From assembly GCA_044237745.1 (NCBI GenBank), contig JBIIER010000016.1, forward strand, positions 1,053 to 65,052: DNA of 64,000 nucleotides, in the 5' to 3' direction. The position numbers and the translations under genes were made by a program. This stretch comes from Pseudobdellovibrionaceae bacterium. GTDB taxonomy: Bacteria; Bdellovibrionota; Bdellovibrionia; Bdellovibrionales; Bdellovibrionaceae. How positions within the stretch are numbered: the first letter of the stretch is position 1; the number at the start of each line of letters is the position of its first letter. The notes beneath the pieces were generated by a model. That model saw only the letters and a program-made list of their open reading frames with translations, was not told where the DNA came from and did not search any database. Below, piece after piece: positions 9,388-56,216 of this stretch.

Positions 9388-9918
9388 ATGAAAAACTCGT
9401 TTTTTATTAAATTATTTGCGACTTTACTGACTGGAGTGCTTGTCACTTCAGTTTGGTACCTTAAGAAGTCTGAAGATCCTGTTCAGACTTCTGTGATTGA
9501 AGATTTACTAGCTAAACAAAATATTTTTGGATTTAATTATAAAAATCCCAAACCTGAGGTAGAGTATTATATCTTAAATTTTTGGGCTTCATGGTGCCCT
9601 CCGTGTATAGAGGAGACACCCTCACTGATTCGCATGACTCAAAAAAATGCGCCTAAATATCATTTATTTGCCATCTCTCAAAACTCATCTTCTCAAGAAA
9701 TAGACGAGTTTTTAAAAACTTTCCCCACTCTCAGCAATCAAAATACTGAGATCCTTTGGGATGATAATAGAAATCTAGCACGTAAACTCAATGTCGAGAG
9801 ACTTCCAGAAACCTTTATCTATTCTGTGAAAAAGAAAAAGTTTTTAAAAATCAGTGGTTCCACGGATTGGGAGTCTCCTGAAGTTGAAAAATACATTCAA
9901 AATTATTTTAACAACTAA
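9388..9918 (+). CDS. thiol:disulfide oxidoreductase, TlpA/ResA-like thioredoxin-fold protein
   Basis: 176 aa with an N-terminal membrane anchor and a WASWCPPC active-site motif. The start abuts the pepN stop. Confidence 0.8.
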   Translation: MKNSFFIKLFATLLTGVLVTSVWYLKKSEDPVQTSVIEDLLAKQNIFGFNYKNPKPEVEYYILNFWASWCPPCIEETPSLIRMTQKNAPKYHLFAISQNSSSQEIDEFLKTFPTLSNQNTEILWDDNRNLARKLNVERLPETFIYSVKKKKFLKISGSTDWESPEVEKYIQNYFNN

Positions 9919-11651
9919 CCAAGTTTTTTATTGATCACTTGGCACCAGTTAAAAGCTTCACCTAAGCAGGTTTCTATTGCTGGAGTGACCCAATTATCTT
10001 GCTCAACAAAATACACCCGATCAGCAAAAGGTTGGAAGGCCTTATCAACGATTTTTTGAGCAATCATCCCTGGTTTTGCCACAGGCATTGGATGTCCCCA
10101 TCGGGCAATTCTGAGTTCTTCGACATCATTTGAACTCAAGCCTAAAGCTGGAAGAATTTGTTCATTGATTTGTTGTTGGAATTCTTTATTGTAATCTTCC
10201 CAACTTTTATCTGAAAGAATTGTGGCTCTGGCACCTGTAAAAGGAAAGCCTCGATACAGAGTCAAAATCCCCTGATTTTTGGTTTTACAAGCATAGTTAG
10301 CAAACACCACATCTGTGACTTTGTGATTGAGAGTCGATTCAGTAATATCCTCAGTGTTTACTTTTCCGTCTCCTAAAAGATAAAGGTCATAGTAATCTTG
10401 AGAGATTTCTTTATCGAGCAGCACATTAGCCACTAAATAACTATTATAAGAAAATTTTTGAAGAGCTTGTAGACGCTCAGGCTCTAAATCTTGCAATATA
10501 TGTTTCACTACAAATTTTGGACAAGCCATGACCACGTATTCTGCTTCAATGGCCTTAATCTCACCAGCTGTTTCGTAATAAACAGCCACACAATTTTTTT
10601 CGACTTTGACTTTAAAGACTAAAGATTGAGCTCTAAAATTATCAACATGAATTTGATCTAAAGACTTCTCCATGATGTGCTCTGCTATGCGGGCATTTCC
10701 ACCTGCAGCCACATAAACTTTACCGAATTCAGCAGCAAACGCATTGAGTGCCACCGCCGCACTCATTTCAGACGCAGGCGTTGCAAAAGTAGACCAGCAG
10801 TAATGCTCTAGCATAGTCATAATATGCGGATGAATCCTTGGAATTTTAAGAGTCTCCTGAATATGAAAAATAAAATCTGTCGAATCTAACTTATCTACAA
10901 ATTCTCTTTCTTTACCTGGAGCTGGGGGGATTTCAGGATACTGGCGATCGTTTTTGCCTTCATTCACTTCTTTAAAATATTTTGCAAGAAATTGAAACTG
11001 ATCTTTGGCTTCAGGATCCGTTTCTCCTTCCCAAAAATTTTTCAAAATTTGGTTTTTAAATAAAATAGGATCATCTTCGTTTTTAGCTCTCACAATTGAG
11101 TAAATGCCTAAGTCTTTATAAAATTGATCTATTGGAGAGCCATCATCGGCTTCCATAAAATAAGCAGCCCCAATAGAGTAATCTAAGCCTCTCCAAGATT
11201 CTCCCTTAGCATTTCCTCCAAAACGATCGGCTCTCTCTAAAACAATAGGATTGTGTTTTTTAAGTTGATGAGCAGAAATAATTCCACTCATTCCCCCACC
11301 CACAATAACAACTTTGGTTTTTTCACGAGGAATTTGCTCAATGGTCAGATTATTTTTTTTCAAATAGGCTTCAAGACTCCATAAAACCTTGTGAGTTTTG
11401 TCGGGTTGATCTCCCGAGTACACAGCACCTAATTGTTCTCCAAGTGTGCGGTCAATGGGGTTGTAATCATAGCCTTTGGAATTTTTAAGAAGATTTTTTT
11501 TAGTCACTCTGGTGGGATCTGAGGAGGTGCTCGATGTTAAACCGCCATCTGACTTTTTAACAACTGTGGTGCAACTTAAAAGCTCTGGAATAAGAAGCAT
11601 CGATGAACTGTAACTTAACCACTTTAAAAAGACCCTGCGATTTGTAATCAT
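9915..11651 (-). CDS. Tat-exported FAD-dependent oxidoreductase (amine-oxidase/desaturase-like), probable lipoprotein
   Basis: 578 aa. Twin-arginine motif TNRRVFLK followed by LLSC. Dinucleotide-binding VVIVGGGMSGIISA ... ERADRFGGNA. Confidence 0.7.
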   Translation of the reverse strand: MITNRRVFLKWLSYSSSMLLIPELLSCTTVVKKSDGGLTSSTSSDPTRVTKKNLLKNSKGYDYNPIDRTLGEQLGAVYSGDQPDKTHKVLWSLEAYLKKNNLTIEQIPREKTKVVIVGGGMSGIISAHQLKKHNPIVLERADRFGGNAKGESWRGLDYSIGAAYFMEADDGSPIDQFYKDLGIYSIVRAKNEDDPILFKNQILKNFWEGETDPEAKDQFQFLAKYFKEVNEGKNDRQYPEIPPAPGKEREFVDKLDSTDFIFHIQETLKIPRIHPHIMTMLEHYCWSTFATPASEMSAAVALNAFAAEFGKVYVAAGGNARIAEHIMEKSLDQIHVDNFRAQSLVFKVKVEKNCVAVYYETAGEIKAIEAEYVVMACPKFVVKHILQDLEPERLQALQKFSYNSYLVANVLLDKEISQDYYDLYLLGDGKVNTEDITESTLNHKVTDVVFANYACKTKNQGILTLYRGFPFTGARATILSDKSWEDYNKEFQQQINEQILPALGLSSNDVEELRIARWGHPMPVAKPGMIAQKIVDKAFQPFADRVYFVEQDNWVTPAIETCLGEAFNWCQVINKKLG

Positions 11652-11766
11652 TTTGCATCCTTACGCTCAAGATTATTTCTGAAAACTCCTTAAAAATAAT
11701 CTCGTAACTTCAAGAATTTGTCTAGACTCCTGCCTAGCTATTCACAAGACCAAAGTCTACCCAAAG

Positions 11767-11781
11767 TGGCACCAATATTGA
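11767..11781 (+). promoter_or_regulatory. weak sigma-54-like element (TGGCAC-N5-TTGA)
   Basis: TGGCACcaataTTGA lies about 110 nt upstream of the ATG at 11893. The -24 half is perfect, but the -12 GC is replaced by GA. Confidence 0.2.
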
Positions 11782-11892
11782 ATTGTTAAGTAAAAAATCC
11801 TTGTGATTTAAAAGAGAAGACTTAATTAAGAGGCCCTTATCTGACTAAAAATCAGACAGGTGTCTAACAATTTACATTTTAGAGGGCCCACA

Positions 11893-14800
11893 ATGAAGAT
11901 TCTTTTAAATTTAACTCTATCTTTAGTTATTTTTATAAGTATTCAAAATTCTCATGCAAATTCCCATTTGCAATGCCCTCAGGTCTTCAACCGCCCCCTC
12001 AAAAATATCAAAAATCAAAAAACTGAAGTCACGGACCTCTTTACTTTTGGCCAGGCCATGACTGAAGGGATGTTGTTGCATCCCGACCAAGAAGACCTTT
12101 TTGAAATCTACAGAAAGACTTTTTTTGGCGACCCCAAGGTGTCTGTTGACAATAAAACGCTTAATGATGTTTCTGAAATCCTTAGCAAAAACCCAGAACT
12201 TAAAAAAATTCCTTTTAGAGAGTACGAAGTCTCCTCCGTTAAAAAACTCTATTCAGTTCCAGATTCGCTCTCAAAGTATGTCACTTCTCAAATTCAATCT
12301 GCCGGCAATGTGAGAAGCAACCTCCTTCAAATTGAAGCCAATATCGGTTATTGGCGCAAAATTTTAGATTACCAAGAACCGCAAATGCCCGAAGGGCTTG
12401 CAAAAGATCAGCAAAAAGAATGGTCTGCAAAAGCAAAATTTAAATTTGAGAAATATTTAAATAGAATCATTTCTAAAACAAATCGCGGTCTCTTGAGTGA
12501 TTTAAAAAATGAACAGATCGACTATGATAAAAAAGTCATTACACTTTTTAAGACTCTTGATTACCTTTCAAAATGGATGCAAACAAAAAACCGAAATACT
12601 CAACCCATCAGACAAGCCATGGTGGATCTAGTTCATACAGTCGGTTTTGGAAATCAGGCCACTTTGGCTCTTCTTAAAAGTAAAAATGGTCTCGATAAAA
12701 TTGAAGGACTTAAAAAGATTTTGGATGAAAGAGATTCCATCGCTATGGAGCTTGAGTTCCATGGGCACTTTCAAGAATTACAAAAATCTTTAAAGGTAGA
12801 TTTTCCGACGGGTCTTTCAAAAAATGAAAACCCTTCAGTAAATATTCAAAAACTAGAAAAAGAAGTATTGAACAGTCCTTTTACCAGTCTGCCTGTTGAA
12901 ACCTATAGAGTCAGAAGCCTCTCTATTCAAGAAGCCCCTTTTAGATCCTGCTTAGGAGGCTCTGATTGTTCTTCTCGAACTTATTTTAGCAAAGCCTTAG
13001 ATCCAAATTTTAATTATTTTACCATGACTGACAATGCTTCTTATTCAACGGGTCATGTGACTGTAGTTTTAGGAGAGGCCACCAATCCTAAAACCAAACA
13101 TTTAGAACCAGTTGCGTTTGTGGATAAAATTCAAAATATCCCTAATTCACAATTGCCCGTATTTTTTCAGGCCATTGCTTTAAGTCTCAATGAATACGGA
13201 TATAAACTCGGCCTTCCTGAAGATGTAGGAGATCACAATGGACTTTCTAACTTAGAAAACACTCGCGTATTTGTAAAAAATGATGTTCTCCCTCTATTGA
13301 GTCATAAACTCTCTAAGTTTAAACCCCATGCCCATAAATACAATTTTCAGAATAGATACTCTCGAGCCTACAATGACCTCAGCCTTAAAATTTACGAGCC
13401 TGTTTTAATTGATAAAGAAACAGAGATTAAGGTGGGAAGGCATTATAAAACAACTCTTGCTAAAAAAAATCTCGACAAGAATCAATTAATTACTGACTTC
13501 CTCAATCTTAAAGACTCAAAAGAATCTCAAGATGTTTTAAAATATGTTTCTAGCGGCCTGTTTATTGAGTCACTTGAAAAACTCAATTTATACACAACTG
13601 CTGAATACGAAAAAGATTTAGAAAAGATTCTTCAACGCAAAGACATTGATTTTAGCATTAAGAAACAAGCACTTTATGAATCATTTTTTGTAAACCCTTC
13701 GAGCAAAATACTTAAAAAATCTAAAAATATATTCTTAAATAAAATCAGCAGTTTTAATCAGGTTGAAAAACACCAAATAGGCTCTGAAATTAAACAATGG
13801 AGTCAGTCGTCTGATAAAAGAAAACAAATTTTTGCAGATCAGTTGAGAACCTCTTGGAACGTTGCCATTACGAAGGGTGAGCTTGAACAAGTGAAGTCCT
13901 TTATTGATCTTAATTTATTTGATGTGAATTACAAAAATGAAAATGGATTTTCTGGATTTTTAATGGCTGTAGAAGCTGAACAAAAAGCTATTATAGAATT
14001 TTTTATGAACCATCCTCAATTTAACCTCTCTGAAAAAAATGAAAATGGTCATAATCTCATTGAACAAGCTCAACTCATTGGCAAAACAAGTTTAGCAAAT
14101 GAACTTGAAAGCCAACGAAGTGATATCAAAGTTAAAAACTTTAATGTTCAAGATAAAACCACTAAGGGAAGACCCATTTTTAATTTTGTTAAAATCAATC
14201 CTGGACAATATTTTGTAGGCGATCAAAAAAAGGTGGCGGTGACCATTACCAAGCCTTTTGATTTTATGTCGACAATGACATCTCTAAAATTGTGGACAGA
14301 TGTCGTGCAACTGGCAGAACGCCACCTCTCAATTGATTATCAACTTGTTAAAGACCCCTATGCAAACCGTTTTGATGATTTTTGGTTTTCTTCTCACTAT
14401 GATTTAATTGTGTCTCAACATCAAAATAATCAAAAAGGATTGCTCTCCCATATTTTTAATAAATTTTTAAATATTGGAAATAAAACTAATCCAGATATTA
14501 TCAGAAATAACAGTGAAGACTTTGCCGTTGATTGGGTCTCACAAGTAGATATCAGTGATTGGATCAAAGCACTTAACCAGCTTTCTGAACTCAATGACCC
14601 TGTTGTTCAAATTGAGTTAGAAAAACTTTTACCCGGTCATCAGTATGGAGATAAATATGATCTGCCTACAAATGCTCAATGGGAGTATGTTGCTCGCATG
14701 AGAGGTTTAATCGCTGAACATATTTTTAGAGATCATCAAGTCTATCCAATCTATAGTGTGCAAGATCCTAAAAAATACGTTTCTACTATTTTTCCGATGG

Positions 14801-15039
14801 GTACTTTTAAACCTCTATTTATTGAGGGGCAGCCCATCTACGATATGAATTCTGAAGTTTGGGAGTTCATGAAGGACTCTTACAATCAAAACAGACCCCT
14901 TGGTGGAGTGGATCCGGGAATGGCCCATATCATTACTTCAGCCGACTACATTATTCGCAGATCTTCTGAAAGCAGTACAAAGCTTTTCAAAACTCGCGAA
15001 AACAATTTGAGTTTTCGATTGGTACGAAATCCCCGATAA
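11893..15039 (+). CDS. large secreted protein with ankyrin-like repeats and a C-terminal FGE-sulfatase (SUMF1-like, C-type-lectin fold) domain
   Basis: Start moved to the ATG at 11893 (AGAGGG SD; signal peptide MKILLNLTLSLVIFISIQNSHA). ANK-like repeats occur around NENGFSGFLMAVEAEQKAIIEFF / NENGHNLIEQAQLIG. C-terminal blocks FVKINPGQYFVGD, LPTNAQWEYVARM and SFRLVRNP are typical of FGE-sulfatase domains. Confidence 0.6.
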   Translation: MKILLNLTLSLVIFISIQNSHANSHLQCPQVFNRPLKNIKNQKTEVTDLFTFGQAMTEGMLLHPDQEDLFEIYRKTFFGDPKVSVDNKTLNDVSEILSKNPELKKIPFREYEVSSVKKLYSVPDSLSKYVTSQIQSAGNVRSNLLQIEANIGYWRKILDYQEPQMPEGLAKDQQKEWSAKAKFKFEKYLNRIISKTNRGLLSDLKNEQIDYDKKVITLFKTLDYLSKWMQTKNRNTQPIRQAMVDLVHTVGFGNQATLALLKSKNGLDKIEGLKKILDERDSIAMELEFHGHFQELQKSLKVDFPTGLSKNENPSVNIQKLEKEVLNSPFTSLPVETYRVRSLSIQEAPFRSCLGGSDCSSRTYFSKALDPNFNYFTMTDNASYSTGHVTVVLGEATNPKTKHLEPVAFVDKIQNIPNSQLPVFFQAIALSLNEYGYKLGLPEDVGDHNGLSNLENTRVFVKNDVLPLLSHKLSKFKPHAHKYNFQNRYSRAYNDLSLKIYEPVLIDKETEIKVGRHYKTTLAKKNLDKNQLITDFLNLKDSKESQDVLKYVSSGLFIESLEKLNLYTTAEYEKDLEKILQRKDIDFSIKKQALYESFFVNPSSKILKKSKNIFLNKISSFNQVEKHQIGSEIKQWSQSSDKRKQIFADQLRTSWNVAITKGELEQVKSFIDLNLFDVNYKNENGFSGFLMAVEAEQKAIIEFFMNHPQFNLSEKNENGHNLIEQAQLIGKTSLANELESQRSDIKVKNFNVQDKTTKGRPIFNFVKINPGQYFVGDQKKVAVTITKPFDFMSTMTSLKLWTDVVQLAERHLSIDYQLVKDPYANRFDDFWFSSHYDLIVSQHQNNQKGLLSHIFNKFLNIGNKTNPDIIRNNSEDFAVDWVSQVDISDWIKALNQLSELNDPVVQIELEKLLPGHQYGDKYDLPTNAQWEYVARMRGLIAEHIFRDHQVYPIYSVQDPKKYVSTIFPMGTFKPLFIEGQPIYDMNSEVWEFMKDSYNQNRPLGGVDPGMAHIITSADYIIRRSSESSTKLFKTRENNLSFRLVRNPR

Positions 15040-15076
15040 ATTTTTGTAAAATAATTTTATGGAATCCCTCATTCAA

Positions 15077-16052
15077 CTAGAGGAGTCTGAAAATCACTGA
15101 ACCATTTCCAGAATTTCCACCCGTTGTATTTGATTGATTGGTGCCTCCGTTATAGGAGCCACCTCCACCTCCTCTGTAGCCGGTATTGGTCCAAGAAGCT
15201 CCACCACCGCCTGCATAACCGCCGCCGCCGGGTGAGCTATGTCCACTTGACGCGGAACCACCACCGCCACCAAATCCTCCATTGGCTCCATCTCGACCGA
15301 CTCCTCCCGTGCCACCATTTAAAAAACTCATTCCTCCACCACTTGTTGCAGAAACTCCATCATTGGCATTACTTCCATTGGCACCATTTGAATAAAATCC
15401 TCCGCCGCCCCCAGAGGAACCATAGGTTCCACTTCCTCCTCCGGCCCCAGCAGAACCTCCAGCGCCGTTATCGTACCAAGTACCACTTACGGTTCCTAAC
15501 CCCCCGAGCTGTTTTTCCCGGAACTTCCAATATCTCCATGTGCTGCAGTATAAGTAATGGAATTGTAGGCACCGGCACCACCACCCGCAATTATTACTGG
15601 TCCATAAACATCAGTTGAAACAAAAGTGCCACCACCGGCACCATTATTATAAACAGCTGTTGAAATTCCCATTTGACCGACCATAATTCTCAGAATTTGC
15701 GATTTAGTTAAATTAAACGTACCAACCATGACTGCACCTAATCCACCACCTGCAGCACTTGTTCCCGCACCTGAAGCTCCATAAGCAGTAATTTGATAAC
15801 TGCCAGATACAGGAACAGTCCAAAGCTGAATTCCATTAGTGACGCTATAATAAAGTGGATTATTTAACCATGGATAGGGCTAGCATTATATGAGCTGATC
15901 AGCGTTGCTTGAGAAGGCCCCGTACGTCCTGTTGTTCCTGCTGAAGTAAAAGTAAAAGTTGTAAATGGATAAAGTGGGACATTAGCACCATTACCTGCAT
16001 TTCTCCCAAATCCACCAGAAGAAGCTCCACCTCTTGATCCCATTAATGGCAT
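15077..16052 (-). pseudogene. stand-alone ALK/LTK-type TNF-like + glycine-rich domain (GRD) protein, interrupted by two 1-nt frameshifts
   Basis: Three ORF fragments in three frames (16052..15864, 15863..15496, 15495..15077) join into a ~325-aa product. It contains YPFTTFTFTSAGTTGRTGPSQ, GIQLWTVPVSGSYQITAYGASG, ILRIMVGQMG, GGGTFV, VIIAGGGAG, GGFGGGGG and a terminal GSVIFRLL. AGGAG SD precedes the ATG at 16052. The breaks lie at a TT/AAA run (~15862-15869) and at a C6 tract (15500-15505). Confidence 0.7.
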
Positions 16053-16099
16053 AATATTCTCCTACTTTTTTTATATTTCTTATTAAAATATGTAAAAAT

Positions 16100-17287
16100 T
16101 TACATTGTTCCAATCTCTTCTAAAACCTGCTCGCAATCAGTATCTTTTAAGGGAATTTCAGAGTTGATCAAACTCGCAGTTCCTTTAATTTGATTTTGCA
16201 TTTTAATATCACTCACTGGTTTTTGAAGGACTTCATAAATTTTAGTTCTTTCATTGGGAGAATGATTCATTCCTGTTTCAACCACATTTTGCAATCTATG
16301 GACTCTTTGATAGAGTTCAGGATTTTTTACTTTGAGTTCTGCATATTGATCAAAATATTCATTCACCTTACTCGTTACTTGCCCATGAACTTTTTCAGTC
16401 ATGTGGGATTCATAAAATTTTGAATTATGGCGAGCTGATTGAAGTGGGCTCTCTCCTGCCATCATATTGTAAATAGAACTCGAATAAGAGTAGATATCTT
16501 GTTCGTGAGTCGCAATTGAGGACATATTGACTTCAGGTGAAGCAAAATCTTTAGTCATCCCATTAATATGAGAACCTTTTTTTACCATAAAATCATAATC
16601 AGCTAATTCAAATTCTATATCGTTAGCCGTGATCTCACTGATCCCTTTTCCACTCTGGGTAGAGTAGAGAATATTCTCGGGTTTAATGTCAGAGTGAATG
16701 AGATCATGTTTTTTAAGTGCATCAAGGGTTTGCCCACCATTTTGTGCGAATTTTTCAATGATTCCTAATTTACGTTCAAACTCTTTAGGGTTTTTTAAGG
16801 CTTCTTGAGGATCTAATTTTAAATTTGGTATTAATGAATTTGTAGACCCTTGCGCTAAATTTAAAACCACCACTCGCTCAATCTGAATAGACTCCCCTTT
16901 AACTCCGGTATTGACTGTGCACTTGAGATTCGATCCAAAAATCTTGTTAAAATGGCGAGCATCCGCAGATTTTAAGATGGGTTTTAACAACTTCTCATTA
17001 GCTTCCAATTTACCTTGTAGAGCCGCTAAGGTGCTTTTAAATGCTACCTTTTGAATGGTTCCATCGGGCAATCGAACACTGCCTTGATAAATAGAACTTG
17101 TAGCCCCCTTACCAATCGGCTCGGGATTGAATTCATAAATTTTGAGAGAGTCCGCATCTACATGAGGATTCATCGAAGTGCACCAACCAATGGGTTGATT
17201 TCCCCAAGCTATATTATCTTGCAAAAAAGAAATTAAAGACGCGAAGACAAAAAGTACATAGATGAAAGTTTTAAAATTAAGGAGCAT
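16100..17287 (-). CDS. exported/membrane-anchored eukaryotic-like (Hanks-type) Ser/Thr protein kinase
   Basis: 395 aa with N-terminal hydrophobic segment FIYVLFVFASLISFL. Kinase subdomains: IGKGATSSIYQG (Gly loop), KVAFK (Lys), LIHSDIKPENIL (catalytic loop), LADYDF (DFG position), DFASPE (APE), DIYSYSSSIY. Confidence 0.75.
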   Translation of the reverse strand: MLLNFKTFIYVLFVFASLISFLQDNIAWGNQPIGWCTSMNPHVDADSLKIYEFNPEPIGKGATSSIYQGSVRLPDGTIQKVAFKSTLAALQGKLEANEKLLKPILKSADARHFNKIFGSNLKCTVNTGVKGESIQIERVVVLNLAQGSTNSLIPNLKLDPQEALKNPKEFERKLGIIEKFAQNGGQTLDALKKHDLIHSDIKPENILYSTQSGKGISEITANDIEFELADYDFMVKKGSHINGMTKDFASPEVNMSSIATHEQDIYSYSSSIYNMMAGESPLQSARHNSKFYESHMTEKVHGQVTSKVNEYFDQYAELKVKNPELYQRVHRLQNVVETGMNHSPNERTKIYEVLQKPVSDIKMQNQIKGTASLINSEIPLKDTDCEQVLEEIGTM

Positions 17288-18947
17288 GGGAACCTTTTTT
17301 GAGGCTGAGACAAGATTTTACAAATTCGACTTTTTCTTTTTTAAAAATTGAAGACTTATTTTTAAAGCTTTGATTCTGCTCTAGGATCTCTTGAATAGAC
17401 TCATCTACAGCCAATTGGCGTTTTTTTAAATCCGCCCCCGCTCTGAAATTTTTTAATTTTTCTTCAACCCCATTCATTATTTTTTGAACTCCCAAAAGGG
17501 TGCGAGGGGATTTTTGATTCCATTGAGATATTTTTTTTGAAAACTCTTGTGTGTTTTGCCATCCATTTTGTTGAGCTTTTTTAACAAGGGCTTTGAGTCC
17601 ATTAGAGCTCATCGCTTTGCCTAAAGGAAAATCCAAAATTGCGGCTGGGGCCATGATCATTTGATGACTGAGTTCGGTTTGTTGTTTGACCACTTCTGTG
17701 TAAGATTGAATTTGCGCGCTTTGTTCTGCATTCACTTGGTCCACACGATTTTTTTGAGAGATTAAATCTTTGCCAGTTAAGCTCACGCCCACAAGTCCAC
17801 ACACAACGGGAGAGGTAAACACACAAGTCGTTGTGAGCCCAGCTACTGCCACCAGGGCCTTATTCTGCTCCTTTGATTGACATTCTTGTTCGAGGGACTC
17901 TGCAAGTCTGCAATAAGTAAGATTGGCGGGTTTTTGCGATTCCACATTTTGGGTGAGGATTTGATTAAATGCTTGGGTATGATTGTATTCACAAAGATTT
18001 ATTTTTTCGTTTTTTAATTTTTCTAAAGCTGTTTTTTGCTGCTGAGCTAAAGTGGAATAGGCTTTTTTAAGTTGAGAATCTGACAACTCATAATTTTTGG
18101 TGGGATCAGCCTCACTAAGAAGTAATTTAAGGACTGGATTTTGAGAGAGAATGTTTTGACATCTAAGTTCAAAGTTCTCTCCCACTTTTTGAACCAATTG
18201 AGGAACCTGATCATGAAAGGCCAGATTTTTAGCTGACTCAGGGAATTCTTGATAGCTCCCCTCGCTGAGTTTTTGTTCGAGATCTTGGATTTGAGTTTGT
18301 TCTTGAGATTCTAATTTAAGAATTTTTTCTGCAGTTTTTATTTCTTCATTTGTAGCTGCTGGAATATCTAGCTTTATTTTTTGAGGAATCCAAGTCAGAG
18401 GATTTTTATAGGCCCCCGATTTATTTTTAAGTGGCTCAGGGGGTTGAGATAAAATTTTAAAGGCTCTGGCGAGTTTTAAGTTTTCATGGAGAGATTTTAA
18501 TTCTTCATTTTTAAATTTTTGGCAAGCTGGATCTTGAGAGCCTTTGGCTGATTCAAAACAATTTAAATAGGTCTGAGTTTGAGCTTGCGTATAACTCCCC
18601 TGCTCTAAAATCTTTTTTTGAACTTGATCTTGCATTTGCTTAAGAATTACTTGGTCTAGAGAATTTTTAAGAGAGTCTGATACAATTTGGGTTTGAGATT
18701 GAGGATCGCAGGTGAGAACTTTTTGGAGAGGCTTTTTTAAGTTTTTTTGAGAAGACAATTGCTTAAATGTAGACTGATCCATCCATTTAAATTGATGTTT
18801 ATTACAAACGGCGTATTGAGATTCATTGAGGAGATTTGCAACCGCCGGAAGTTTTTTGTTATTCACAGCTAAAACCCTTGAGTTTAAAAACAAACTCAAA
18901 AACAAAATCAAAATGTGCAAAACTTGAAAGACTTCCTTGTATTTCAT
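17277..18947 (-). CDS. secreted Q/K-rich coiled-coil protein with an internal hydrophobic segment, function unknown
   Basis: 556 aa. Signal peptide (ILILFLSLFLNSRVLA), long Q/E/K-rich helical regions and a hydrophobic stretch ALVAVAGLTTTCVFTSPVVCGLVGVSL. Its stop overlaps the kinase start by 11 nt. Confidence 0.5.
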   Translation of the reverse strand: MKYKEVFQVLHILILFLSLFLNSRVLAVNNKKLPAVANLLNESQYAVCNKHQFKWMDQSTFKQLSSQKNLKKPLQKVLTCDPQSQTQIVSDSLKNSLDQVILKQMQDQVQKKILEQGSYTQAQTQTYLNCFESAKGSQDPACQKFKNEELKSLHENLKLARAFKILSQPPEPLKNKSGAYKNPLTWIPQKIKLDIPAATNEEIKTAEKILKLESQEQTQIQDLEQKLSEGSYQEFPESAKNLAFHDQVPQLVQKVGENFELRCQNILSQNPVLKLLLSEADPTKNYELSDSQLKKAYSTLAQQQKTALEKLKNEKINLCEYNHTQAFNQILTQNVESQKPANLTYCRLAESLEQECQSKEQNKALVAVAGLTTTCVFTSPVVCGLVGVSLTGKDLISQKNRVDQVNAEQSAQIQSYTEVVKQQTELSHQMIMAPAAILDFPLGKAMSSNGLKALVKKAQQNGWQNTQEFSKKISQWNQKSPRTLLGVQKIMNGVEEKLKNFRAGADLKKRQLAVDESIQEILEQNQSFKNKSSIFKKEKVEFVKSCLSLKKGSHAP

Positions 18948-19088
18948 AAACTCGATTGTACATTCTCACATCACAAATTAAAATCTAAAACTAGACCTTT
19001 AACCATATGTCTGAATGAAATTCTTTTTTCTAAAGCTTCTTTGCGAAATCAATTTGCGAATTCAAGATCCTCAATTGAAAATAGTCAA

Positions 19089-20384
19089 ATGAAAGCCAAA
19101 ATCTTATTTTTAAAATTCTCTGCTATTGTGTTCTTGGCCATTTTACTTTTACCAAAGGGATCCTCGGCTTCTCTCTTTAATTTTGGTCTTTTTGATCAGC
19201 CTTGTCCTTACGAGGACTTCAAACCATTGAATCAATGTCGTATAGAGGGAGAAGTTCAAACACAAAAAGAACTGAGCCTTCAAGCACGAACGCTCACTTG
19301 CCATGAAACTCAAAAATCAAAGCTTTGTTCAGAGACTCCTAAGAGATATCCCTTTTTAAAAACTCAAATGAGGGAGTGTCATGTCGAAGGACTCTGTAAG
19401 ACTCATCTTCTAGGTTCTAAAAAAGAAGCCATTGAAGGATGCCAAAAAGGTTTGCAAGAGGCCGCTCATCATATTGGAAAGGAACTTCCTAAATCCCTTC
19501 ATGATGCTGAAGAAATGATTTTGCATTTAGGAAAAACTCTTGCACAATTTCTTATAAAGGCCCCTGGGGTCACTTGGAATCAAATCAAACTTTGTTTGTA
19601 TGATTCAGAACACTGTACTTTTGCAGATCTTAAAAAATTTATTGCGAGTCTTCCTGAAAAAACTCAGAACGAAATTCTAGACCTTATGAGCAGTTTGGAC
19701 CGATTTGAGTGTCTTGATAACATCGGACGATTTGAACTTCTTTGCTATCGCAGTGCTTTGATCTCTGCAAATCTTGCAGGTGGTTTCGCGGCTGTGGGTG
19801 TTGGCAAAGTGGTTGTGCGAGAAGCGTTTCTTCCTCTTATTAAAGAGGGGATTCCTAAAAAACCCCTTCCTGAAATAAAAACTGCTGAAACAGTCAAACA
19901 ACCACCTCCTCCACCAATACCTGCCAATGCAGTTGAAAGACTTGAGCAACGTTACGGAAAAAAGGTGAACCTTTTTGTAGATTACCGAGGGGATGAAAAC
20001 TACCCCATGGTGTTTCTAAGAGATTATGACACTAATGCATTCATGGGTACTCTCGATGTTCATTACATTTCAGCAAATAAATCTCTAGAAATGGGCAATC
20101 TTTTTACTTATGAAAATTATCGAAATATGGGTGTGAGTGAAGCCCTTGTTGAAAGCATGCTTAAGGAATTTCCGAAAGTAGAAGTAATTTCCACGGATTC
20201 ACTTACACAAACAAATTTAAAGGTTGTCGAAGATCATATAAAAAAAGGAAAATCAGTCACCGATTCGATTAAAGAATCTCCTGCCTACAAGGTGCGAGCA
20301 AAATTTGGATTTACAGAAATCATTCCCGAATCAATCAATAACAATACTTACGGCTTTAAAGTCCGCCGTCCGACTCAACCTTGA
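19089..20384 (+). CDS. secreted protein with C-terminal GNAT-like acetyltransferase domain
   Basis: Start moved to the ATG at 19089 (signal peptide MKAKILFLKFSAIVFLAILLLPKGSSA). Cys-rich N-terminal half and PPPPPIP linker. The C-terminal part has an R-x-x-G-x-S/A-like motif (YRNMGVSEALVESML) and AYKVRAKFGFTEI, typical of the GNAT fold. Confidence 0.45.
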   Translation: MKAKILFLKFSAIVFLAILLLPKGSSASLFNFGLFDQPCPYEDFKPLNQCRIEGEVQTQKELSLQARTLTCHETQKSKLCSETPKRYPFLKTQMRECHVEGLCKTHLLGSKKEAIEGCQKGLQEAAHHIGKELPKSLHDAEEMILHLGKTLAQFLIKAPGVTWNQIKLCLYDSEHCTFADLKKFIASLPEKTQNEILDLMSSLDRFECLDNIGRFELLCYRSALISANLAGGFAAVGVGKVVVREAFLPLIKEGIPKKPLPEIKTAETVKQPPPPPIPANAVERLEQRYGKKVNLFVDYRGDENYPMVFLRDYDTNAFMGTLDVHYISANKSLEMGNLFTYENYRNMGVSEALVESMLKEFPKVEVISTDSLTQTNLKVVEDHIKKGKSVTDSIKESPAYKVRAKFGFTEIIPESINNNTYGFKVRRPTQP

Positions 20385-20388
20385 GACT

Positions 20389-20601
20389 TTAATTGACTTC
20401 CTCTTTTTCAATATCGATTTGATTTCCTGGCTGAGGGACTTCTGCCAACCATTTCCCATCAGGGCAAGATGTGCCAGAGAGTTTCACTTTGACTTTCATA
20501 AAGCACCCGCAAACAGAACATCGAGCTAGGGTGCTATTAAAAAAAGTGCATTGTTTGCAAATATCAAATCTTGATTGAGCTTTTGCTTGATCGACAAACA
20601 T
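20389..20601 (-). CDS. small Cys-rich (zinc-binding) protein, phage-like
   Basis: 70 aa with pattern C..C-x12-C..CGC-x14-CP.GKW. The start overlaps the upstream stop as TAATG, suggesting translational coupling. The pattern resembles small ORFs common in phage genomes (recalled). Confidence 0.5.
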   Translation of the reverse strand: MFVDQAKAQSRFDICKQCTFFNSTLARCSVCGCFMKVKVKLSGTSCPDGKWLAEVPQPGNQIDIEKEEVN

Positions 20602-21161
20602 TAAGTCACCTCGTAATCAGGCACTTTTTCCCAACTTAAAGTTTGAGAATTCCATGCGAGACCATTTTGTTCATTGGTTGCTAAAGAAGGATTTAAATTC
20701 CAAATTTGCTGAGACTCATCCCAAGTATAAATCTCACCCTCTTTAAAAGCAGGCCTTGCCACAGGAGCGAACCAGGCTTGATCTTTCCATTTCCAAGACG
20801 GGAATGGTTGCTGAGGTTGTGAAGTTTTAAATTTAAAACTCACATCCATTTGAACGCCTTCTTCATGGGACCAAATATTTAAGGTGTAACTATGGAAGGC
20901 TTTCAGATGGAGACTGACCAGCTCAATAAATAATTGATCAGTACTTTCGTAAGTGAGCCCTGGACGAGGAAATTTTTGAAAATCCACCCTTTGATTATTT
21001 TCGTCGAACAATTCATAACCAAAAGATAAATTATTAAAGACCACTGTTTGAGTTTGCTTGGTAAAACGGAATTGCAATTCTGCATATACCGAACCCAGAT
21101 CAACAACACTCATGTTCCATTTTTTATTTATTAAATCGTTTGTAGCTATTATTGAACTCAT
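20601..21161 (-). CDS. Trp-rich hypothetical protein (possible fibre-assembly/chaperone-like)
   Basis: 186 aa. The start is 2 nt after the stop of the glycine-rich gene. The C-terminal half PFPSWKWKDQAWFAPVARP...YTWDESQQIWNL resembles phage tail-fibre-assembly-type W/P motifs (weak, from memory). Confidence 0.45.
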   Translation of the reverse strand: MSSIIATNDLINKKWNMSVVDLGSVYAELQFRFTKQTQTVVFNNLSFGYELFDENNQRVDFQKFPRPGLTYESTDQLFIELVSLHLKAFHSYTLNIWSHEEGVQMDVSFKFKTSQPQQPFPSWKWKDQAWFAPVARPAFKEGEIYTWDESQQIWNLNPSLATNEQNGLAWNSQTLSWEKVPDYEVT

Positions 21162-21163
21162 TT

Positions 21164-22126
21164 TTACACCGCATACTTTATCATAATGATTCCTGATCCA
21201 CCTTTACCGCCACCAGCTGAAGTATAGCCATTTCCATTAGTACCAGAGCCTCCACCACCACCAGTATTAGCTCCACCGGCGCCACCCCAAGTTGGATCTC
21301 CAGATGGCCCTGCAGCACCTGCATTTCTGGCACTTCCACCTCCAGAACTTCCGCCACTCTGGCCAGAACCGCCACCGCCGCCGCCAATTCCACCATTACC
21401 GCCAGCATTACTACAATAACCATCATTACCGCCACCACCAGACCAATAGTAGCCGATACCATCAATACTTAAAGCGATACCTGGGCCGCCATCGCGGCTT
21501 GCATATCCATAACCGTTACCACCGGCACCACCACCGCCACCGCCACGACATGAGCAGCAACCTGCATCATTGGCGCCTCCATTATAACCACCATAGGCGG
21601 TTCCTGTCCAACCTGCTGGCAATGTCATCGATCCCACAGTAGCTCCAGTTCTTGTACTGTAACTATATCCACCAGTATTGGCGACGCCCTGGTTTCGAGA
21701 GGGCACATTTCCAGTGTAACAATGTCCAGCACCACCACCCAAGGCTGTTAAGCCAAAGGCTGTTGTGCTCTCCCCAGGATATCCATCGGCCCAACCAATG
21801 GCTCCAGCACCCCCATTACCCACATAGAGTCCGTATGTTCCAGGCAACATCTGAGCAGAGGCATAGATAATTCCTCCACCGCCGCCGCCACCACCAAGCA
21901 TACCACCGCCACCACCACCGCCAACAAGCATAGCGGTCACAGAACCTTTGCCTGTAAAAGTAATGGAAGCGCTACCCACAGCTAAAAAAGTATGAATTTT
22001 ATAATTGATACCACCAATATTTACAGTTGTGATGGTTCCGCCCGTTCCGACCAATGGGCCCACTCCTGAGTTTCTTTGTCCAAAATTACTTGCAGCAGTC
22101 ACTCCTCGACGACCGACAAATGGCAT
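21164..22126 (-). CDS. glycine-rich domain protein (ALK/LTK-GRD-related, phage-type subfamily)
   Basis: Start moved to the ATG at 22126 (AAGGA SD 7 nt upstream), giving MPFVGRRG.... Motifs: YKIHTFLAVGSASITFTG, AMLVGGGGGGG, many GGxGG runs, CCSCRGGGGGG, terminal GGSGIIMIKYAV. No signal peptide. Confidence 0.7.
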   Translation of the reverse strand: MPFVGRRGVTAASNFGQRNSGVGPLVGTGGTITTVNIGGINYKIHTFLAVGSASITFTGKGSVTAMLVGGGGGGGMLGGGGGGGGIIYASAQMLPGTYGLYVGNGGAGAIGWADGYPGESTTAFGLTALGGGAGHCYTGNVPSRNQGVANTGGYSYSTRTGATVGSMTLPAGWTGTAYGGYNGGANDAGCCSCRGGGGGGAGGNGYGYASRDGGPGIALSIDGIGYYWSGGGGNDGYCSNAGGNGGIGGGGGGSGQSGGSSGGGSARNAGAAGPSGDPTWGGAGGANTGGGGGSGTNGNGYTSAGGGKGGSGIIMIKYAV

Positions 22127-22227
22127 AAGAATTCCTTTCAAGAATTTTAATAGCAATTAAATTTATTTTTAAATTGATTCACAAAAAAGTAAAGCTTCAA
22201 GGATTTTAATATAACAAAGTGGCGGAG

Positions 22228-22278
22228 CCAGCCGAAGTCCGCAGACAGCTCGAAGAGCTGTGGCGAGACGAAGGCTGG
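22228..22278 (-). other. GC-rich extended stem-loop abutting the tRNA 3' end (terminator/processing element?)
   Basis: CCAGCC...GGCTGG outer stem and ACAGCTC-gaa-GAGCTGT inner stem in an otherwise AT-rich region. The outer stem includes the tRNA CCA. It is followed on the minus strand only by a weak T-rich run. Confidence 0.35.
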
Positions 22279-22352
22279 TGATTCCGGCCTGGATTGAACA
22301 GGCGACCCCCAGTTTAGGAAACTAGTGCTCTATCCAACTGAGCTACGGAATC
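22276..22352 (-). tRNA. tRNA-Arg (anticodon CCU)
   Basis: A 77-nt cloverleaf was folded by hand: acceptor GATTCCG/CGGAATC, D-arm GCTC-AGTTGGATA-GAGC, anticodon arm CTAGT-TTCCTAA-ACTGG, variable GGGTC, T-arm GCCTG-TTCAATC-CAGGC, discriminator A, encoded CCA. Confidence 0.92.
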
Positions 22353-22446
22353 ACTCACTTATTTAGTCTCCCAAAAACTGGGAGACGTCAAGAAAGATGA
22401 AAAAGAGAAGGGATGGATTGTGCAATGATTGCGCAATGAGTGAGGT

Positions 22447-23859
22447 TTATTCGTCCTCTAATTCCTCATCACCCACTGAACCCAATGAGTATTTTTCAAT
22501 ACGATAGCGCATAGATCTAAAAGTGATATTTAAAAGCTTAGCCGCTTTCTTTTTCACACCGTTAGCTTGATGAATCGCTTTAATAAGAATTTCTTTTTCG
22601 ATTTGGCCCATGATTTTTTCTAAATCAATGCCGTCTTCTCCCACAATGATTTCGTGAGAAGAAGCCACTTTACGACCAGAAACAGTATTCACAAAAGGAG
22701 GAAGACTCTCTGGCAAAATAGTGGCGCCGCTCTCAAGAGCGACTGTTCTTTCAATAATATTTTCTAACTCTCTCACGTTACCAGGGTAATCATAAGATTT
22801 TAAAGTGGCCAAGGCTTCATCGCTGATGCCACCAATATTTTTAGAAAGCTTATCGTTATATTTTTTAAGAAAGTGATTGGCTAAAAGCTCAATATCATCT
22901 CTTCTCTCTCTTAAAGGAGGAGATTTAATATTGATCACATTAAGACGGTAATAAAGATCTTGTCTAAAAGTTCCTTTTGCCACCATGTCTTCTAAATTTC
23001 TGTTAGTCGCCGCGATGATTCTCACATCCACTTTTGTATCATCTGTGCAACCCACTTTACGAATGATTCTTTCTTGAATCGCTCTTAAGAGTTTTACTTG
23101 GATGTTTAATGGCAACTCACCGATTTCATCTAAAAAGAGAGTCCCACCATTAGCAGCCTCAAAGAGACCTGTTTTGTCCATCATCGCGCCAGTAAAACTG
23201 CCTTTTTTATGACCGAACATTTCTGATTCCATCAGAGCTTCAGGAATAGCTCCGCAGTTAATACTGATAAAAGCTTTATCTTTAAGGGGGCCATTAAAAT
23301 GAATGCTTTTTGCAATCACTTCTTTACCCGTACCACTCTCTCCAGTGATTAATACATTGGTAGGAGACGATGAAACTCTTTTAATCAAATCATAAACTCG
23401 ATGCATGGGTTCTGTATTCCCAATTAGGTTTTGCAAAGAGTATTCTTTTTTAAGAACTTTTTTAAGAACGCGGTTTTCTAATTCTAAATTTTGCGAACGA
23501 AGAGCATTATTAACATTCATTCTCACTTCATCAAGTTTGAATGGTTTTGTTAAATAATCATAAGCACCGAGCTTCATGGCTTCAACGGCAATTTCTGTAG
23601 AGCCAAAAGCAGTGATCATCATAAACACCACTTCAGGATAAATTTCTTTAACGTGTTTTAAGAGTTCCATGCCTGAAACATTCGGCATCTGAAGATCCGA
23701 AATAATCATATCAAAAGTTTTTTTCTTAAGAAGATCAATTGCACGAGAACCGTCTTCGGCTGTCGTAATCTCGAAACCCTCTTTTTTTAACATGATTTCT
23801 AAAAATTCTCGTATTGATTCTTCATCATCTACTATTAATATCCTGGATTTCATTTTCAC
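22447..23859 (-). CDS. pilR: sigma-54-dependent response regulator (NtrC family), PilR-like
   Basis: 470 aa. Receiver domain (ILIVDDE...ISDLQMP), AAA+ sigma-54 interaction domain (GESGTGKE, GAFTGA-type loop KGSFTGA, ESEMFGH) and a C-terminal HTH. Located immediately downstream of the pilS-like kinase and the pilBC genes. Confidence 0.85.
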   Translation of the reverse strand: MKMKSRILIVDDEESIREFLEIMLKKEGFEITTAEDGSRAIDLLKKKTFDMIISDLQMPNVSGMELLKHVKEIYPEVVFMMITAFGSTEIAVEAMKLGAYDYLTKPFKLDEVRMNVNNALRSQNLELENRVLKKVLKKEYSLQNLIGNTEPMHRVYDLIKRVSSSPTNVLITGESGTGKEVIAKSIHFNGPLKDKAFISINCGAIPEALMESEMFGHKKGSFTGAMMDKTGLFEAANGGTLFLDEIGELPLNIQVKLLRAIQERIIRKVGCTDDTKVDVRIIAATNRNLEDMVAKGTFRQDLYYRLNVINIKSPPLRERRDDIELLANHFLKKYNDKLSKNIGGISDEALATLKSYDYPGNVRELENIIERTVALESGATILPESLPPFVNTVSGRKVASSHEIIVGEDGIDLEKIMGQIEKEILIKAIHQANGVKKKAAKLLNITFRSMRYRIEKYSLGSVGDEELEDE

Positions 23860-56100: not shown

Positions 56101-56216
56101 GATAAATTAGAAAAGAAGATGATAGTAAACAAGCAAGTGATCCAAAATAGAATATTGCTTTGTTTTTTTGTTCGAAAATCTTCCACTGATAAATAACCAA
56201 TTGGTCGTTCTCTCAT
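53160..56216 (-). CDS. tail-fibre-like surface protein with C-terminal ALK/LTK-type TNF-like + glycine-rich domain
   Basis: Start set at the ATG at 56216 (AGGAG SD), about 1018 aa, with N-terminal anchor ILFWITCLFTIIFFSNLSAQA. The middle has phage-fibre-type motifs: SGSYSDLINKPNLGTLAA, TGTWNGNKIEVANGGTGSTSL, GNVLTSDGTTWKS, VGVGTASPTSSLQVSG, LTLPTAVGISGREYRIKKIDNS...SDGANWMIL. The last ~304 aa (54074..53160) carry GRD motifs: YPFNAFTFTTCGATGYTGPN, GIQKWTVPKTGTYRIVAAGAAGG, LQILVGQKG, GGGGGTYVI, LIVAGGGGG, GGFGGGGPG, DGYVTITF. Confidence 0.7.
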   Translation of the reverse strand: MRERPIGYLSVEDFRTKKQSNILFWITCLFTIIFFSNLSAQAEAPPSMQYLSYNGRLLKPDGKPLISNSVLIKVQIKSAPPSSCILFEDIQEKDLSYTAGVFSIKIKEDSLTRTDTTGLTMGQIFSNKTMTSTQSIECANGSTNNPPPLTEGRKFYVYFKDNTDYNFTDYDPLPAQDIQYVPMALESLQVGGYSKERLLRIADGVDSTNTELDATKLSDLLAIINGTTDKYLKMSDANNFNGANIKSSSISDSSVVSLNYSKLTSVPEPLREIASTTCSDGEILKKTNGVWTCTPDAGTVQAFAKAAPGSGLKIDENILKINISEIQSAASGQWGIDITGNANTSTSFTGNLVGDVSGTQSQTIVDKINGVNVSKALATDDGKYLRFLNGMGWQPQFMKLSDLKNSLGTSSAFNVDTCNSSQTLIWSSITDQFSCQNISLPADQVTGLSTAATSGSYSDLINKPNLGTLAAKSSLADEDIAAAAAISWSKINKTGAAAADIGASPTAGSTNLTILGTITTGTWNGNKIEVANGGTGSTSLASNSVILGNGTSAVQTVAPGASGNVLTSDGTTWKSQPSTGVWAVSGSNVSYTAGSVGVGTASPTSSLQVSGSFAAGLNTVTTTQTLTASQTNILANVSSGSITLTLPTAVGISGREYRIKKIDNSVNTVTIATTSSQKIDDYTGAVLSTKYQYLNLVSDGANWMILAKTGSIVPQLYPFNAFTFTTCGATGYTGPNLGTCQSAYSSQSWASNTSYLNMSSQGIQKWTVPKTGTYRIVAAGAAGGTLNYNGGSGAVMAGDFSLTQGTVLQILVGQKGQADTSPHYNENGGGGGTYVINGATGTNALIVAGGGGGAPSASYGTSTYRDASFGDGVTTTNSQGYYSGAGNVSGASGGAGGNVIGSNTGGAGGGLTGNGNNGGGHCDTARGGTSFSNGGNGGYISSCYGGNHNGGFGGGGPGALGNPGAGGGYSGGSINGSWSSYSTWGGGGSSYNTGSNQTNVGGSNPNDGYVTITFLVDP

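Follow-up and report, generated by a model that had tools for sequence, protein, structure and literature searches.

Three genes on the minus strand lie head to tail between positions 15077 and 18947 of the window, the whole 64-kb stretch of DNA that was analysed. An open reading frame at 17277-18947 encodes a 556-amino-acid (aa) secreted or anchored protein and overlaps by 11 nt the start of an intact gene for a 395-aa Hanks-type Ser/Thr protein kinase (16100-17287). The kinase stop is followed, after a spacer of 47 nt (16053-16099), by a further ATG (16052); an AGGAG Shine-Dalgarno (SD) sequence stands 6 nt upstream of that ATG and no terminator-like hairpin was found within the spacer. The third frame, at 15077-16052, carries a TNF-like plus glycine-rich module of the PF12810, ALK/LTK glycine-rich domain (GRD) type. 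All of this layout had been described in a sequence-only reading, and the list of open reading frames bears it out, as do the Pkinase match (PF00069, E=4.6e-15) and hydrophobic N-terminus of what had been taken for a kinase with a signal or anchor. The observation is nonetheless confirmed only in part: the reading had counted the third frame as a gene of ~325 codons, but no intact one exists at 15077-16052, where the frame lies in three pieces. Neighbouring genes in the window are chromosomal (a pilus operon, two-component systems, aminopeptidase N), and no virion or tail structural module or prophage was found around the GRD copies of the 64-kb window.

Three-frame translation places one piece at 15864-16052, a second at about 15496-15879 and the third from 15077 to about 15610. 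From each piece to the next the frame shifts by the equivalent of a single missing base, and correcting both shifts gives a product of 325 aa that finishes at a terminal beta-strand (..GSVIFRLL*) and has neither a signal peptide nor a hydrophobic N-terminus. The first shift (15867-15879, minus strand) is bounded by a TAG of the downstream frame (15880-15882) and a TAA of the upstream frame (15864-15866); homology to P0001, the nearest intact homologue (331 aa, 59% identity), runs on through the site (...SSYNAS / YPWLNN...). The second (15496-15507, minus strand) comprises a G6 run (15500-15505) and, directly after it, an in-frame TAG (15496-15498). Owing to the two frameshifts, 15077-16052 holds no open frame able to yield the GRD domain, and the copy beside the kinase is a pseudogene.

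Comparison by blastn and MAFFT with two further contigs shows that this copy is not present in every strain. A segment at 15044-16095, which covers the GRD gene in full, SD included, is found in the window and in L007, a second metagenome contig from another sample, and is absent from L006. On either side of the segment stands the 6-bp direct repeat AAATTT (15038-15043 and 16096-16101), the indel amounting to 1,058 bp. L006 represents a sister strain, collinear with the window and 98.5-99.97% identical to it, in which the kinase is kept and 2 nt separate its stop codon from that of a convergent gene. Exactly at the junction, divergence between window and L006 leaps from 0.03% to 1-3.5%, the pattern that an endpoint of recombination would give. 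The dN/dS of the kinase between the two is 0.21: the L006 kinase is intact and under purifying selection without the GRD gene. The GRD gene is dispensable, and L006 either lost it or never gained it, a choice framed by three haplotypes only.

The corrected product has the ALK-type order of motifs that the sequence-only reading had recognised, and PF12810, named there, is indeed the ALK/LTK GRD family. The N-terminal 160 aa, the glycine-poor half of the product, match it at 32.7 bits, above the cut-off of 24.5 (E=9.9e-8); the full-length sequence has no Pfam match because the HMMER bias filter removes it. In a phmmer search of PDB all nine matches are ALK, LTK or SCD-2, and when searched by itself the non-glycine TNF-like core matches SCD-2 with zero bias (E=2e-6). 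The AF2 model (pLDDT 88.3) agrees: its best 21 Foldseek matches in PDB are all ALK/LTK/SCD-2 (E 5e-14 to 1e-6, TM 0.5-0.66), and the next match has an E of about 1. The GRD product is homologous to the ALK/LTK ligand-binding module and shares the fold of the solved ALK/LTK ectodomains, in which a TNF-like beta-sandwich bears a lattice of polyglycine helices.

Set against the TG module of ALK and LTK (PF12810; PDB 7N00, 7NWZ, 7LRZ, 7NX1, 7LIR), the motif order agrees end to end: FTFT..G.TG..GP, GIQ.W.VP..G.Y.I..GA.G, ILVGQ.G, GGGG..YV, I.AGGGG, GGFGGGG and a terminal beta-hairpin, at 23-29% identity over about 340 aligned columns and a TM of 0.5-0.75. Unlike ALK and LTK, the GRD polypeptide has no EGF-like domain, transmembrane helix or tyrosine-kinase domain, and the pseudogene next to the kinase lacks a signal peptide. 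No ALKAL/Augmentor-type ligand is known for the module here, and none would be expected in bacteria.

A second copy of the module lies elsewhere in the window, at 53160-56231 on the minus strand, within an intact gene for a fibre-like protein of 1,023 aa; no kinase adjoins it. The protein has a signal-peptide-like N-terminus, a long Ser/Thr/Gly/Asn-rich shaft that tblastn finds weakly similar to regions of phage tail fibres, and a C-terminal tip (about aa 720-1023) that is a TNF-like plus GRD module, 44.7% identical to the pseudogene product (phmmer E=4.2e-37 between the product and the 1,023-aa protein). It scores 35.2 bits against PF12810 (cut-off 24.5); the tip matches only LTK and ALK in PDB by phmmer (LTK, 5.7e-10), and its AF2 model (pLDDT 89.8) retrieves ALK/LTK/SCD-2 as the best 21 Foldseek matches, with E down to 4e-17. 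The paralogue also retains the ALK-like Cys pair (FTFTTCGATG..GP....C..AY). Of the two, 53160-56231 is the window's functional copy of the module.

The PF00069 score of the kinase is 56.1 bits against a cut-off of 31.7, its N-terminus is signal-peptide-like and its catalytic motifs are complete (G59KGATS, VAFK84, H198SDIKPEN, D230YD, S250PE). Pkinase outscores PK_Tyr_Ser-Thr; the nearest PDB matches are ULK1, DYRK2/3, titin, PKA and PknB (E>=2.8e-7), and ALK and LTK are absent from the 31 matches returned. By the PDB ranking and the Pfam scores it is no tyrosine kinase of the ALK, LTK or insulin-receptor type; it is a generic Hanks kinase of the Ser/Thr kind, without particular affinity to ALK. 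Its family is tiny, 1.84e9 proteins having yielded 13 representatives at E<=1e-10, and it falls far under every NCBIfam equivalog cut-off (LegK1, 21 bits versus 550). With the exported or effector Hanks kinases Legionella LegK and Yersinia YpkA it shares a eukaryote-like fold, full catalytic motifs and an N-terminal export signal; it differs from them in forming its own very small family and in having a conserved 556-aa partner. That partner has no Pfam, NCBIfam or PHROG match. Its homologues adjoin relatives of the kinase in three of six contexts (L120, E=3.8e-25; L122/L123, E=6e-39), which makes it a conserved genomic partner of the kinase.

How these observations should be read depends on several alternatives. 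If the resemblance to ALK and LTK were one of glycine-rich composition only, then there would be no homology to explain, and both the missing Pfam match of the full-length product and the failure of composition-adjusted BLASTP to find anything between the paralogues fit that reading. The sequence matches do not come from glycine, however: SCD-2 is matched at zero bias by the non-glycine core of the product and LTK by the core of the intact paralogue, the glycine-poor half passes the PF12810 gathering score, and the fold searches give ALK/LTK/SCD-2 alone before an E-value gap of ~12 orders of magnitude. On the strength of the core matches, the PF12810 score and the fold searches we reject composition as an explanation, its probability being close to nil. 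Improbable too, if less extremely so, is a GRD gene that functions in vivo independently of the kinase, its shifts being sequencing or assembly errors or else bypassed by programmed -1 recoding. Each shift is a single missing base; site 2 sits in a G6 run beside a stop codon and reads G GGG GGT then stop, formally a slippery heptamer; and the corrected product is modelled at high confidence by AF2 and has every residue that is invariant in a 90-sequence family alignment, of which it is by construction the first sequence. Against this, the independent contig L007 has the same sequence at both sites, while a 21-nt deletion elsewhere sets it apart from the window. Site 1 has neither homopolymer nor slippery motif, the remaining long reading frames of the 64-kb window are all intact, and the gene is missing outright from L006.

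The 1,058-bp segment may be a recent insertion of a phage-derived gene, possibly defective on arrival, rather than an ancestral gene deleted in L006: the family is mostly viral, the segment contains just this one gene and its SD between the copies of a 6-bp direct repeat, divergence jumps exactly at the junction, and identity of the copy to the other sequences found is only 45-59%. Microhomology-mediated deletion is just as typically marked by an AT-rich repeat of 6 bp, however, and integrase, transposase and terminal inverted repeats are all absent; the convergent stops of L006, 2 nt apart with no spacer, look more like a deletion scar, and two frameshifts imply some residence time. We therefore treat insertion as possible but somewhat doubtful. 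Far less credible is the proposal of the sequence-only reading that exported kinase and GRD protein form a functional 'split ALK' in one operon, as a receptor/ligand-like pair or a prey-directed effector pair. The GRD homology that it invoked is real, by profile, sequence and fold alike, and the genes are co-directional, separated by 47 nt that contain an SD and lack a terminator-like site; to that extent the interpretation is partly supported. The pairing itself is another matter. The GRD gene carries two frameshifts; L006 retains the kinase under purifying selection without it; the export signal is on the kinase and none is on the GRD product; and the closest solved relatives of the kinase are ULK1, DYRK and PknB, not ALK. 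A survey of 117 GRD loci (1.13 Mb, 2,811 ORFs), in which the PknB positive control was detected, found a kinase near none of them, and no Pkinase occurs in the Pfam-annotated GRD contexts. Conversely, a GRD gene stands beside none of the distant kinase relatives (0/6 contexts), where the 556-aa partner is what is conserved. The functional link fails because the adjacency is absent in relatives (L006, the 117 GRD loci and the six kinase contexts), the very outcome that the reading had named as telling against it. The position of the GRD gene beside the kinase is strain-specific and coincidental.

The GRD family itself is far from rare. It numbers >2,632 homologues, mostly of 300-350 aa; at least 464 relatives are found in IMG/VR, 72 structure matches are viral, and PHROG 22713 is matched at E=1e-31. 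In one phage locus (L089) the gene lies between a virion/tail-spike protein and genes for the head protease, scaffold and major head proteins; in another (L023) a virion structural protein of 1,232 aa carries the module at its C-terminus. The GRD proteins are a widespread prokaryotic and phage family, stand-alone and of about 320 aa, classed under PF12810 and PHROG 22713. Comparable tips are known: gp24 of cyanophage Pam3 has a TNF-like plus glycine-rich tip resembling 7LIR (PMC9608196), and the Klebsiella phage protein TFP_Y binds LPS, its host-range mutations mapping to the glycine-rich domain (PMC12671077). GRD relatives share with these phage tips (Pam3 gp24, PDB 7YFW; TFP_Y; PHROG 22713/7388) a place in virion or tail-fibre modules or at the C-termini of large virion proteins, whereas the window copies are chromosomal with no surrounding prophage. 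Moreover, no N-terminal helical docking domain is predicted in the GRD monomer model, in which about the first 25 residues are of low confidence, and Foldseek did not return gp24 among the PDB matches of either window copy; on that basis the family is nearer to ALK/LTK than to gp24. Since the window copy and P0001 both lie in chromosomal contexts with no recognisable prophage, it is from the habitat of the family that we infer a phage derivation.

The intact copy suggests a role for the module in this uncultured Bdellovibrionota bacterium, namely adhesion or prey recognition, because it tips a fibre-like protein of 1,023 aa that bears a signal peptide. Bdellovibrio deploys mosaic adhesive trimer (MAT) fibres with swappable C-terminal tips; those reported are S74, novel beta-sandwiches, plain TNF-like and C-type lectin, with no mention of a glycine-rich or ALK-type tip (Caulton et al. 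2024, PMC10769870). The 1,023-aa protein resembles MAT proteins in its length of about 1,000 aa, its Bdellovibrionota genome, its export signal, its long, phage-tail-fibre-like shaft and its discrete adhesive-type C-terminal domain. It differs from the reported fibres in its glycine-rich ALK-type tip, and its shaft has no sequence match to the solved MAT fragments by phmmer against PDB.

The reading we favour, at a probability of about 0.78, is that the copy beside the kinase is a decayed and dispensable member of a widespread prokaryotic and phage family, that the intact tip elsewhere is likely an adhesin, and that kinase and 556-aa protein form a separate unit. The GRD is the same module as the ligand-binding region of metazoan ALK/LTK; in phages it forms the distal, receptor-binding end of tail and virion fibres and here, intact, the C-terminal tip of the exported fibre protein, where its most likely role would be that of an adhesin tip for prey cell-surface glycans. 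The copy beside the kinase is inactivated by two frameshifts, one sister strain being without it through the AAATTT-flanked indel. The kinase is a rare, exported Ser/Thr Hanks enzyme that travels with the overlapping upstream 556-aa secreted protein, and purifying selection maintains it whether or not the GRD gene is present. These comparisons establish the homology, the fold, the broken reading frame, the presence/absence polymorphism, the lack of synteny and the conserved partner of the kinase; what we infer from them is that the module binds glycans or prey, and a cellular role for the kinase pair. The locus thus presents real homology, ordinary gene decay and coincidental adjacency.

Another glycine-rich family, PF21722, occurs some 4 kb away from the kinase pair in the window and again in L122, one of the distant kinase contexts. 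On account of this recurrence, glycine-rich fibre genes may be loosely associated with the kinase family.

Three minus-strand open reading frames lie head to tail in the positions that the sequence-only reading had assigned to them. The frame of a 556-aa protein (17277-18947) and the start of a 395-aa protein kinase (16100-17287) share 11 nt; 47 nt after the kinase stop comes the ATG (16052) of a gene encoding an ALK/LTK-type TNF-like and glycine-rich module (the GRD gene, 15077-16052). An AGGAG ahead of this ATG and the absence of a terminator-like hairpin from the spacer were likewise borne out; promoter and terminator scans gave results no better than chance. The third gene, taken to be an intact frame of some 325 codons, proved to be broken into three pieces by two shifts, each equivalent to a single missing base: one within 15867-15879, the other in a run of six Gs (15500-15505) immediately ahead of a TAG. 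Programmed frameshifting was considered; the first site is without any slippery sequence. The remaining long open reading frames of the 64-kb window are all intact and tightly packed, which means that damage is confined to the GRD gene. A sister-strain contig (L007) carries exactly the window's sequence over the entire gene, both frameshifts included, and the shifts are therefore real in the population.

A second sister-strain contig (L006) runs collinear with the window, at 98.5% identity on one flank and 99.97% on the other, but is missing exactly 15044-16095, leaving the kinase stop 2 nt from the stop of a convergent 1,048-aa gene. The indel measures 1,058 bp. The only sign of mobility is a 6-bp repeat, AAATTT, at the L006 junction; neither terminal inverted repeats nor a recombinase were found at the indel. 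Divergence between the window and L006 is 0.03% over 9000-15043 and 1-3.5% beyond the junction (16096-23859 compared): it is 3.5% in the kinase, 3.1% in a 489-aa gene and 2.1% in a Gly_rich_2 gene, and returns to 0% in pilS and pilC. Because the jump occurs exactly at the junction, it suggests a recombination endpoint there and a variable island with a boundary precisely at the GRD indel. The copy at 15077-16052 is dead and dispensable. Convergent on the GRD pseudogene in the window is the gene of a 1,059-aa protein (11860-15039, plus strand) with a signal-peptide-like N-terminus and a C-terminal FGE-sulfatase-like region that scores just under the Pfam cut-off (21.2 against 23.3 bits); it has no other family match.

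The sequence-only reading had named PF12810 correctly, and the homology to ALK/LTK is real at the level of HMM, sequence and fold. The N-terminal, glycine-poor 160 aa of the frame-corrected 325-aa product match PF12810 (ALK_LTK_GRD) with 32.7 bits (E=9.9e-8; gathering score 24.5 bits); the full-length product returns no Pfam match because the HMMER bias filter discards it. A search of all PDB sequences gave nine matches, exclusively to the ectodomains of ALK, LTK and C. elegans SCD-2 (E about 2e-6), among them one of zero bias covering the TNF-like core and another aligned over residues 25-300. The AlphaFold2 model of the product (90 homologues; pLDDT 88.3, pTM 0.88) was compared to the PDB with Foldseek: the best 21 matches are without exception ALK, LTK or SCD-2 TNF-like/GRD structures (E from 5e-14 to 1e-6, TM 0.5-0.66, identity 23-29%), and the next match has an E of about 1. 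Together the PF12810, PDB sequence and Foldseek results exclude a resemblance due purely to glycine composition. The closest homologue (P0001) is intact, 331 aa long and 59% identical to the corrected product, which shows the frame correction to be right. BLASTP with composition adjustment found zero matches between clearly homologous glycine-rich proteins; since phmmer returns E=4e-37 for such a pair, this is a limit of the tool and not evidence of absence. The module thus has a TNF-like/polyglycine fold homologous to ALK/LTK, and at sequence level this homology can be traced over the domain's full length.

Homologues of the corrected product number more than 2,632; most are stand-alone proteins of 300-350 aa that lack a signal peptide. 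IMG/VR holds at least 464 relatives, and predicted viral structures (BFVD) gave 72 matches, from phages of several morphotypes and from giant viruses; the product corresponds to PHROG 22713 (E=1e-31), of the function-unknown class. On one phage contig (L089) the GRD gene has on one side the gene for a virion or tail-spike-like protein of 1,791 aa and on the other the head protease, scaffold and major head genes; on another (L023) a virion structural protein of 1,232 aa carries the module at its C-terminal end, and on other long contigs the gene lies upstream of holin-like genes. A metagenome scan with the window sequence found relatives of at most 52% identity and no close intact copy. A scan of genome contigs with the full family alignment settled on poly-Gly patterns and confirmed eight loci among the matches listed, a poor sample of cellular genomes. 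A functional precedent comes from published phage fibres. In tail fibre gp24 of cyanophage Pam3 the tip combines TNF-like and glycine-rich parts and can be superposed on the ALK homologue 7LIR (PMC9608196); a Klebsiella phage fibre built on the same plan recognises LPS, and mutations that alter its host range fall in the glycine-rich domain (PMC12671077). The module is common at the tips of phage fibres. The analysis clearly places the ALK/LTK ligand-binding module in a very large family of phage and bacterial fibre tips. The GRD pseudogene may be a relic of the stand-alone, phage-type version.

UniProt gives the name 'receptor protein-tyrosine kinase' to many phage and giant-virus proteins of the GRD fold (for example A0A8S5PNX1, A0A385EC16 and A0A2P0VMX4). 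Some are only 343-437 aa in length, which leaves no room for both a GRD and a kinase domain. The names were probably carried over from ALK via PF12810, and the likely mislabelling touches many phage members of the family.

A working two-gene unit of an ALK-ectodomain-like protein and a kinase would have been striking in a bacterium, and the sequence-only reading proposed just such a functional pair ('split ALK'). It staked the proposal on the adjacency being kept in relatives, where it is missing, and the proposal falls. Four independent grounds – population, GRD side, kinase side and molecular features – show that the GRD gene is not linked to the kinase. The gene is absent from one sister strain. 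No kinase homologue was found at 117 GRD-bearing loci (1.13 Mb, 2,811 ORFs), in which a PknB positive control was detected, nor any kinase in the Pfam-annotated contexts of GRD homologues. Conversely, none of six contexts of kinase relatives contains a GRD. Finally, the kinase is of a generic Ser/Thr type and not ALK-like, and the GRD product lacks an export signal, although the kinase N-terminus is signal-peptide-like. The GRD gene is a new but dead member of a known family, lying beside a rare kinase by accident; adjacency in a single genome, even with operon-like spacing, gives no evidence for functional coupling.

The identification of the 395-aa protein as a protein kinase held (Pkinase E=4.6e-15), as did that of its hydrophobic, signal-peptide-like N-terminus. 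All catalytic motifs are kept and the gene is intact in all three strains; between the pseudogene strain and the strain without the GRD gene it is under purifying selection (dN/dS 0.21). Only two close relatives exist among 5.8 billion proteins, both from the sister strains, and an exhaustive HMMER search defines a very small family (13 representatives at E<=1e-10 in 1.84 billion proteins, the nearest 45% identical). Among solved structures the kinase comes nearest to ULK1, DYRK, titin and PknB, a list from which ALK is missing; it is a generic Ser/Thr Hanks kinase. It scores far under every cut-off of the NCBIfam equivalogs; assignment to a defence system was rejected, PADLOC and NCBIfam having given generic kinase-domain matches far below cut-offs. 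All kinase relatives have signal-peptide-like N-termini, and in three of the six contexts a homologue of the 556-aa protein adjoins the kinase (L120, E=3.8e-25; L122 and L123, E=6e-39). As GRD is never among these contexts, the conserved unit is the 556-aa protein plus exported kinase: the true partner of this rare family is an uncharacterised secreted protein, and the two may act jointly on some target. In L007 a 21-nt in-frame deletion (16166-16186) removes part of the kinase C-terminal tail, inside an imperfect palindrome (16147-16188).

More interesting than the pseudogene, along with the kinase pair, is a fibre protein with an intact module. A search of the window with the GRD product as query uncovered an intact paralogue, a 1,023-aa frame (53160-56231, minus strand) in which a complete TNF-like/GRD module takes up the C-terminal ~300 aa (phmmer E=4.2e-37; 44.7% identity to the pseudogene product over 329 columns). 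The protein scores 35.2 bits against PF12810, and among PDB sequences it matches only LTK (5.7e-10) and ALK. The AlphaFold2 model of the module has a pLDDT of 89.8, and its best 21 Foldseek matches are all ALK, LTK or SCD-2 (E down to 4e-17, TM up to 0.75); the ALK-like cysteine pair is retained (FTFTTCGATGYTGPNLGTCQSAY). A signal-peptide-like N-terminus precedes a long shaft, rich in Ser, Thr, Gly and Asn, with weak similarity to phage tail-fibre regions. No kinase adjoins the gene. The intact copy of the module sits on an exported fibre-like protein.

The window comes from an uncultured member of Bdellovibrionota, as judged from its PilB, which shares 63-66% identity with sequences of Bdellovibrio, Pseudobdellovibrionaceae and Oligoflexia. 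The mosaic adhesive trimer (MAT) fibre proteins of Bdellovibrio are about 1,000 aa long and carry interchangeable C-terminal tips, some of them plain TNF-like domains with which prey glycans are bound (PMC10769870); that account makes no mention of a tip of glycine-rich or ALK type, as borne by the 1,023-aa protein. The protein is thus a plausible new tip variant and a candidate adhesin of MAT type, its class of tip being unreported for Bdellovibrio fibres. The tip would bind receptors, probably glycans, in contact with other bacteria. Our fuller reading is tentative (a probability of roughly 0.3): that the module at 53160-56231 is the working receptor-binding tip of an exported, MAT-like surface fibre of a predatory member of the Bdellovibrionota, exchanged with phage tail fibres and serving prey recognition. 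If true, predator fibres have a new class of tip, the metazoan ALK/LTK ligand-binding module falls within an abundant family of prokaryotic and viral adhesin tips, and the animal domain may derive from that family.

A second, different glycine-rich gene (21164-22156, minus strand; PF21722 Gly_rich_2, phrog_2295) is intact in the window and in L006 alike. Next come a 186-aa Trp-rich frame and a 70-aa Cys-rich frame (phrog_13558), and on a phage contig (L029) phrog_13558 adjoins tandem glycine-rich paralogues sharing the motif TGGTI..I.GY.(I/V)HTF; the cluster (20389-22156, minus strand) has the look of a further chromosomal fibre module of phage type. In the window and in one distant kinase context (L122, 352-2199) alike, a PF21722 protein lies some 4 kb away from the 556-aa/kinase pair; in L122 it is fused to a Fibrinogen_C-like domain; phmmer found no similarity between the two, and with two cases only the proximity could reflect chance or a loose association. 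The two glycine-rich genes at 15077-16052 and 21164-22156 begin with short motifs that resemble each other, MPLMGSRGGASSGGFGRN (16020-16052) and MPFVGRRGVTAASNFGQRN (22095-22126); a looser form, M[PS][FL]..S....G[FY]GRR, recurs at the N-termini of many family members, and the motif might serve as a signal for docking or export.
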